DNA from: Gammaproteobacteria bacterium
Lineage (GTDB): Bacteria > Pseudomonadota > Gammaproteobacteria > JAURND01
NCBI GenBank assembly: GCA_047601185.1
Contig: JASGJS010000001.1
Coordinates: forward strand, 1,153,118 to 1,217,117
DNA length: 64,000 nt
Direction of reading: 5' to 3'
Numbering within the stretch: the first letter of the stretch is position 1; each line of letters begins with the position of its first letter. Shown one piece after another: positions 52,470 to 52,905 of this stretch. The notes under the pieces are model-generated. The model searched no databases. It saw only the letters and a list, made by a program, of their open reading frames with translations, and had not been told where the DNA came from. A program made the position numbers and the translations under genes.

Positions 52470-52905
52470 AGCAAGCACAAATCTTGGGAGCACACTGAAA
52501 CTTCTTCATTTTAAAGCTCTCCTCTCCAAAGCTTCCATCTCGACTTAGATTGAAATGCCACATTCACAATGCATGGCTTGAGCTTGGGAGCGCGGGCTGC
52601 TAGCCCGCTGCTTTTGCAAGCCTTTGGGAGTGCGCCGAAGCTTCCTCATCTTAAAGCTCTCCTCTCCAAAGCTTCCATCTCGACTTAGATTGAAATGCCA
52701 CATTCACAATGCATGGCTTGAGCTTGGGAGCGCGGGCTGCTAGCCCGCTGCTTTTGCAAGCCTTTGGGAGTGCGCCGAAGCTTCCTCATCTTAAAGCTCT
52801 CCTCTCCAAAGCTTCCATCTCGACTTAGATTGAAATGCCACATTCACAATGCATGGCTTGAACTTGGGAGCGCGGGCTGCTAGCCCGCTGCTTTCGCAAA
52901 TCTTT
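52470..52905. repeat. Tandem array: 3 x ~140-bp unit, each unit ending in a family-B GC hairpin/terminator
   Basis: The unit ...cttcctcatcttaaagctctcctctccaaagcttccatctcgacttagattgaaatgccacattcacaatgcatggcttgagcttgggagcgcgggctgctagcccgctgcttttgcaagcctttgggagtgcgccgaag recurs at a 140-bp period (52581, 52721, 52861). The first unit is diverged. Confidence 0.85.

Follow-up and report, generated by a model that had tools for sequence, protein, structure and literature searches.

Tandem arrays of small RNA (sRNA) paralogues are made of head-to-tail units of ~ 100–200 bp that each end in an intrinsic terminator, and every unit carries its own promoter together with a conserved seed or structure. 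Tandem number can also vary within modular intergenic repeats such as the BOX elements of Streptococcus pneumoniae, in which an internal boxB is present in variable tandem number between fixed end modules. Among palindromic repeats, most described REPs are defined by an unpaired GTAG or CGTC tag at one end (PMC3733652). In the BIME-2 of Escherichia coli, tandem copies at one locus are well conserved, their number varies between strains, and the models proposed for their amplification involve either strand transfer by a REP-associated transposase or a rolling circle (PMC3333891). In a lineage related to the one considered here, the nearest described element is QMITE2 of Coxiella burnetii, which is located between genes and in 3′ UTRs, is predicted to fold into very stable hairpins and has yielded an sRNA (PMC5896051).

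Here we compare with these systems a tandem array located between secF and plsY in the genome of an uncultured gammaproteobacterium, a Coxiellales-like metagenome-assembled genome (MAG), within a stretch of DNA of 64,000 nucleotides analysed as a whole and hereafter called the window. Its SecF is identical to a single deposited protein (MFT3742218.1), the next best match being 84% identical and that of Coxiella burnetii 67%. Judging from the sequence, the array is probably a REP/BIME-like cluster produced by local tandem amplification of a hairpin repeat together with ~ 100 bp of neighbouring DNA, the hairpins of which would terminate secDF transcription; we assign this reading a probability of about three in four. 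The hairpin repeat, hereafter family B, adds a new sequence family, from an uncultured lineage, to a well-known kind of element. The features of the locus are as follows.

51486–52403, plus strand: secF, the upstream gene, 305 aa, 100% identical to MFT3742218.1 (‘MAG: protein translocase subunit SecF [Gammaproteobacteria bacterium]’) and collinear with the relatives
52416–52455, minus strand: L arm, an inverted family-B copy with a minus-strand hairpin followed by a T-run (pattern match at 52420–52443; flagged as terminator-like on the minus strand)
52471–52510, plus strand: segment X1, the diverged leading edge, carrying CTTGGGAGC; all 14 differences from the internal junction fall here
52476–52615, plus strand: unit 1, made of X1, a ~ 64-nt body and a 41-nt R arm (Tandem Repeats Finder, repeat search and in-register comparison)
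52592–52608, plus strand: R hairpin 1, GCGGGCTGCTAGCCCGC then TGCTTTTG, the first plus-strand terminator-like site after secF (terminator scan)
52616–52755, plus strand: unit 2, made of junction segment J, body and R arm (Tandem Repeats Finder and in-register comparison)
52732–52748, plus strand: R hairpin 2, terminator-like (terminator scan)
52756–52895, plus strand: unit 3, with 2 differences from unit 2 and a tail in TTTC instead of TTTT (in-register comparison)
52872–52888, plus strand: R hairpin 3, the same stem with a weaker T-run (TGCTTTCG), found by pattern match and unflagged by the terminator scan
52896–52930, plus strand: segment X2, a partial fourth unit and diverged trailing edge; the array reaches 52922, and X2 is 77% identical to J over 35 nt
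52951–52977, plus strand: remnant of an L-type arm, reduced to its outer part (GCTCCCAGGCGCGAGCCTATTC) and lacking the hairpin, 89% identical over 27 nt to the reverse complement of 3946–3972 (E 2e-4)
53010–53038, plus strand: candidate sigma-70-like plsY promoter, TTGAAA, 17-nt spacer, CAAAAT, with 9 of 12 positions matching (consensus match only)
53071–53664, plus strand: plsY, which runs opposite to its counterpart in three relatives, between inverted family-B arms

Tandem Repeats Finder placed the array at 52497–52922, with a period of 140, 3.1 copies, 96% matches, 0% indels and a score of 775, and a separate repeat search of the window set its copies at 52484, 52624 and 52764. The hairpins start at 52588, 52728 and 52868, in agreement with the marks of a first-pass annotation of this DNA (52581, 52721 and 52861), and a 45-mer that it had singled out occurs exactly three times (52532, 52672 and 52812), against 0.00 expected in shuffles. 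Its description of three head-to-tail 140-bp units at an exact period is thus borne out. Including the preceding inverted arm, the order reads L-body-R-body-R-body-R, with the three R arms (52588, 52728 and 52868) all on the plus strand and no alternating orientation. The sequences between hairpins are identical copies and not unique spacers, which, with a period of 140, upholds the earlier view that this is not a CRISPR locus. By contrast, the body is not notably AT-rich, its GC content (0.41–0.42) being that of the window as a whole (0.41), while the arm reaches 0.66.

Periodicity is perfect across 351 nt (52511–52861), so that 52511–52721 is identical to 52651–52861 over 211 nt. In register, only 2 of 140 positions distinguish units 2 and 3, which were rightly described as near-identical, whereas unit 1, reported as diverged, differs from unit 2 only in its first 35 nt, where all 14 differences lie, the other 105 nt being identical. 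This confinement of divergence to the two edges of the array is unlike the uniform decay of an old satellite, and a perfect core between diverged edges indicates that amplification, or later homogenisation, was recent. When X1 and J were compared base by base (52484–52510 against 52624–52650), 7 differences were counted in 32 gap-free nt, all of them transitions, followed across a sharp boundary by 211 identical nt; such a pattern may reflect a mutation bias in hairpin-prone DNA or the edge of a conversion tract. The same comparison led us to reject J as a clean recombinant of X2 and X1. As J is no simple hybrid of the two, a single recent unequal crossover leaves details unexplained, which points to more than one step or to homogenisation.

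Both flanks of the array bear traces of the family-B arm. X1, in which CTTGGGAGC corresponds to the beginning of an R arm whose hairpin is missing, looks like a relic arm, and on the other side the relic at 52951–52977 also matches 45993–46008 and 53711–53731. Across the window, 9 of the 10 plus-strand TTGGGAG sites fall inside family-B loci. Given the inverted L arm and the relics at both array edges, nearly all of the 667-bp secF–plsY spacer (52404–53070) is a family-B-derived mosaic. The inverted arm itself (52416–52455), 12 nt past the secF stop, was absent from the first-pass description.

The family-B arm is 41 nt long, with consensus GGCTCGAGCTTGGGAGCGCGGGCTGCTAGCCCGCTGCTTTT and the layout GGCTCGAGCTTGGGAGC-GCGGGCTGCTAGCCCGC-TGCTTTT. 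Thirteen copies, on both strands, occupy five intergenic loci of the window against 0 expected, a count that covers 64 kb (3.7%) of the 1.71-Mb genome. Their alignment contains 21 invariant columns, with GGAG always preceding the stem and TGCTTT following it, and neither a GTAG nor a CGTC tag. It supports a 17-nt core hairpin in which 95% of cells are paired, with one covarying pair: at the seventh, closing pair of the stem, 8 distinct copies have U-A and 4 have A-U, a compensated change. The predicted fold of the arm reaches -20 kcal/mol. The L arm (52415–52455) and the unit 1 arm (52576–52616) are 93% complementary over 41 nt and form terminal inverted repeats. Outside the array, the arm occurs at four further loci.

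3952–4051: back-to-back R-L doublet after yqeY, with the stem variant GCGGGCA...TGCCCGC
45970–46231: family-B locus with a tandem reiteration of its own (L-flank-L-flank-R), next to tRNA-Leu(CAA)
53687–53861: second composite, made of an L arm, a 93-nt body and an R arm, between the convergent plsY and NlpC/P60 genes
62979–63064: back-to-back R-L doublet between the UPF0102 gene and the SIS-domain gene

At 45970–46132, an L arm and its 45-nt flank are repeated with a period of 85 bp (1.9 copies, 91%, Tandem Repeats Finder), and this stretch is an older instance of the process that amplified the array. Expansion of a family-B composite, which the first-pass annotation had offered as one of two readings, consequently gains weight from the dispersed intergenic arm, the inverted arm ahead of the array, the relics at its edges and this similar reiteration at a second family-B locus.

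We propose that an ancestral composite, of the form L arm-body-R arm, sat between secF and plsY, and that one R arm with ~ 100 nt of adjacent DNA would then have been amplified in place into three head-to-tail copies. Amplification in place is favoured by the exact period, the contrast between a perfect core and diverged edges, the edge relics and the older reiteration at the other family-B locus. X1 and X2, two short segments related to each other, could have supported unequal crossing-over or replication slippage; strand transfer by a REP-associated transposase, as proposed for the BIME-2 of E. coli, is an alternative mechanism. The body would be local to the site of the array, since it has no second copy in the window; a search at word size 7 found no other copy in the window or in the fetched loci, and a 24-mer of the body gave 0 matches in metagenome and viral collections.

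A stronger version of the transposase mechanism would make family B a previously undescribed REP family of the non-GTAG type, moved and amplified in tandem by a single-strand transposase of its own; as in Coxiella, it might in addition give REP-derived sRNAs. If true, the 140-bp units would be products of the strand-transfer activity of this enzyme. We consider this unlikely. The ORFs adjoining the family-B loci of the window are housekeeping genes (YqeY, 4HBT, UPF0102, SIS and NlpC/P60) and include neither a RAYT nor another transposase. The recurrence of the arm core in unrelated DNA bears on how far such a family might extend. The core, (C)TGGGAGCGCGGGC-N5-GCCCGC, recurs as inverted doublets in GC-rich contigs of soil metagenomes, and a metagenome scan for GGAGCGCGGGC-N5-GCCCGCTGCTTT returned 22 stretches, all in contigs of 47–69% GC. 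In many of the 22, the core follows CTG or CCG and forms an inverted doublet 55–130 bp apart with GGAGC ends pointing outward, which is the layout of the R-L doublets of the window. Doublets of CTGGGAGCGCGGGC-N5-GCCCGC were located in L008 (4240–4340), L009 (295–423), L010 (5635–5693), L012 (4111–4222), L015 (1792–1847), L016 (1328–1422), L018 (156–294), L021 (212–323 and 861–932) and L023 (1426–1520), and the ORFs between the doublets of L021 showed no obvious transposase. These soil doublets may represent a widespread REPIN-like family or a convergence of GC hairpins; with the core recurring in soil contigs, a cross-phylum REP type reaching a 41%-GC, Coxiellales-like genome is conceivable. 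Searches with the arm gave 0 matches in the viral collection, and a literature search for the hairpin sequence returned nothing relevant. The genome-contig collection yielded one match to the arm core (n = 1), within a GC-rich stretch of an Acidobacteriaceae MAG that looks coding, and we attribute it to chance.

The exact period and near-identical units might also be expected of an active miniature transposon, the 140-bp unit having inserted three times by targeting its own end, much as hairpins are targeted by elements of the single-strand Y1 or IS110 type. Its 41-nt terminal inverted repeats would be the L and R arms, and REP-type hairpins are known insertion targets, as illustrated by IS1111 in QMITE2 (PMC5896051). 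Its body is nevertheless confined to a single locus in 64 kb while the arms are found at four others, the other composites carry different bodies, and no family-B locus of the window is adjoined by a transposase. L-body-R composites were delimited at 52416–52616 and 53687–53861, and at the outer ends of three such composites we saw no matching direct repeats, on sequences read by eye and few in number. Between the array body and that at 46009–46189, similarity is not significant (z 0.1–1.1), and with the body at 53728–53820 there is only a marginal 15-nt match (z 2.6). On this basis we rejected, for the array body, a view of the three composites as copies of a single MITE whose body is conserved. 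Judged as a MITE, the array thus presents terminal inverted repeats and an internal sequence that is not conserved among dispersed copies. Two smaller segments are held in common: ATGCATGGC, just before the R arm, is present in the array body and in the composite at 53683–53866, and the bodies at 46093–46189 and 53728–53820 have a 40-nt module in common (z 6.4). Altogether, repeated insertion of a miniature transposon seems quite unlikely.

Returning to the REP/BIME-like cluster, its R arms most likely act as stacked intrinsic terminators, or as 3′-end stabilisers, for yajC-secDF transcripts, a role deduced from their anatomy and position. Transcripts leaving secF would pass the L arm, which offers no plus-strand T-run, meet R hairpin 1 and its TTTT ~ 190 nt past the secF stop, at the first plus-strand terminator-like site, and then encounter two further hairpins. 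The anatomy of an intrinsic terminator, i.e. a GC-rich hairpin and a T-run downstream of a gene on its strand, is present for units 1 and 2. The unit tails read GCGGGCTGCTAGCCCGC then TGCTTTT in these two units and TGCTTTC in unit 3, so that the closing hairpin and T-run attributed to every unit hold for the first two, while the third has a weaker tail that the terminator scan left unflagged. Terminator-like sites in the region (5) are not above those of shuffles (3.3 ± 2.3). Arms oriented as terminators closely follow the 3′ ends of yqeY, secF, plsY, the NlpC/P60 gene and the UPF0102 gene. In this position, the array would insulate plsY, which is now co-oriented with secDF and has a promoter-like site of its own. 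No IHF-site consensus was found in the secF–plsY spacer, and its count in the window equals chance.

The hairpin and T-run that close each unit, the third tail being weaker, also invite the second reading of the first-pass annotation, in which each 140-bp unit would be an independent sRNA gene, transcribed from a promoter of its own and terminated at the R hairpin, comparable to tandem paralogues or to the MITE-born sRNAs of C. burnetii. The host is Coxiellales-like (SecF 67% identical to that of C. burnetii), and the CbsR3, CbsR13 and CbsR16 sRNAs of C. burnetii derive from QMITE1/QMITE2 (PMC5896051). Yet a search with the sigma-70 consensus found no sigma-70-like promoter on either strand within 52456–52930, the nearest such site being the one ahead of plsY (53010–53038). 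The Rfam search advised in that annotation returned no match to the array units, whether at the gathering threshold or with E relaxed to 10. The predicted fold of a single unit is no more stable than that of shuffles (z -0.62 on the plus strand and -0.06 on the minus strand), and neither is that of the body alone (z 0.07); that of the whole spacer is (z -7.58), because its L and R arms pair. In the collections searched, the body has no homologue, and hence no conservation or covariation backs an RNA. The proposal of a tandem sRNA gene array is thus unsupported, and we regard it as very improbable. Coding capacity fares no better, as two identical 52-aa ORFs on the minus strand read through the hairpin (…QRASSPRSQ…) and were rejected as genes, with no homologue among 5.8 billion proteins. 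The body has no detectable function, and the 52-aa ORFs over these hairpins should be treated as spurious in annotation.

An assembly artefact, in which the true locus would hold one or two units and the others would stem from repeat mis-assembly, comes to mind for a metagenome-assembled genome but is extremely improbable, since collapse or expansion artefacts rarely make diverged edges and two substitutions in unit 3, and the single 1.71-Mb contig suggests long reads spanning the 420 bp.

The gene downstream of the array has also been rearranged. We compared the window with its three nearest fetched relatives, L002 and L004 (84%) and L028 (80%). The tgt-yajC-secD-secF genes and rnt are collinear between the window and all three, whereas plsY is inverted: 53090–53646 aligns in minus orientation to L002, L004 and L028 (blastn) amid collinear neighbours. 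In the relatives, plsY (L002 11127–11711, L004 11052–11636, L028 7470–8066) lies on the opposite strand and is convergent with secF in 3 of 3. The arms that flank plsY in the window (52575–52615 and 53687–53727) are in opposite orientation and 98% complementary, which fits an inversion caused by recombination between opposite family-B arms; we infer that this was its origin. No family-B hairpin was found in the L002, L004 and L028 loci. Each of them instead carries a different inverted-repeat insert in the secF–plsY spacer, with 47-nt arms in L002 (10984–11097), 20-nt arms in L004 (10921–11044), and 94-nt arms at 96% around 283 nt in L028 (6991–7461). This spacer is a recurrent landing site for palindromic elements.

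Other repeats were noted in the window. A second dispersed palindromic family, CCTTCTCCCC-TGTGGGAGAAGG then GTGCCCGATAGGGCGGATGAGGGG, is present on both strands in at least 8 copies, which are up to 97% identical (7600, 10968–11074, 20381–20456, 37492–37596, 45004–45063, 55712–55774, 59387–59462 and 60760–60822). The DUF2797 gene (55808–56620, perhaps together with 56682–56960) is reversed relative to all three relatives and has a palindromic repeat different from family B at its left edge (55712–55774); this could be another small inversion associated with repeats. Inverted copies of a third repeat family (~ 160 nt), 86% identical, lie at 49387–49546, in the yajC–secD spacer, and 62295–62454, and the family also occurs at 2099–2213 and 15280–15308. 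The match of 49405–49505 to positions 11–115 of L002 in both orientations indicates a palindromic element common to this 84% relative, at a different locus. Two identical IS3-type (rve) transposase ORFs of 244 aa (20547–21281 and 26378–27112) accompany a 300-nt direct repeat with 100% identity (20508–20807 and 26339–26638). They edge a low-GC stretch at 24000–36000 (0.34–0.36, against a window mean of 0.41) that may be an island. Finally, a 292-nt direct repeat with 87% identity has its copies 4.35 kb apart (32529–32820 and 36882–37173).

Read as an amplified REP/BIME-like cluster, the array accounts for a conspicuous repeat without new biology. The locus displays three known effects of dispersed palindromic repeats, namely spacer filling, local amplification and a position on either side of a single-gene inversion (plsY). 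Should the hairpins prove to be terminators, the array would also illustrate how an expanding repeat could insulate a gene brought downstream of a strong operon by an inversion. The number of units is likely variable, which makes the locus a candidate for strain typing of this uncultured, Coxiellales-like lineage.

Among the systems introduced above, tandem sRNA paralogues differ from the array in the promoter and conserved structure of their units, both of which were undetected here. BOX elements are unrelated to it in sequence and host phylum, and their boxB is ~ 45 bp long with no terminator-like hairpin. A similar wave in G+C content is found in the NIMEs (dRS3 and RS units), in which GC-rich inverted repeats alternate with 50–150-bp units of lower GC (PMC1797815). 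The array nonetheless lacks the dRS3 consensus, the inverted repeat ATTCCCN8GGGAAT having given 0 matches with up to 1 mismatch, and its units are copies of one another while neighbouring RS units of NIMEs differ. Like family B, QMITE2 is composite (150–190 bp) and has terminal inverted repeats around a REP hairpin, but it carries a GTAG REP and 7–11-nt direct repeats, and no tandem amplification is described for it (PMC5896051), a comparison made by description only. In the one C. burnetii locus that we examined, there was no family-B hairpin.

The comparison with REP/BIME-2 (PMC3733652, PMC3333891) is the most extensive. Four differences set family B apart: GGAG precedes its stem in place of a GTAG or CGTC tag; the three arms of the array share one orientation where REP and iREP alternate in a BIME; the reiterated unit is long, 140 bp of which ~ 100 bp is non-REP; and no RAYT is known for it, on a scan of the ORFs adjoining family-B loci. 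In both cases, however, short GC-rich palindromes occupy intergenic DNA, mostly just past the 3′ ends of genes, and are arranged in inverted dimers and in clusters that reiterate a unit and its flanking DNA in tandem, with nearly identical copies at one locus. The likeness extends to the roles proposed for REP/BIME-2, transcription termination and mRNA stabilisation, which are those that the hairpins between secF and plsY would play.
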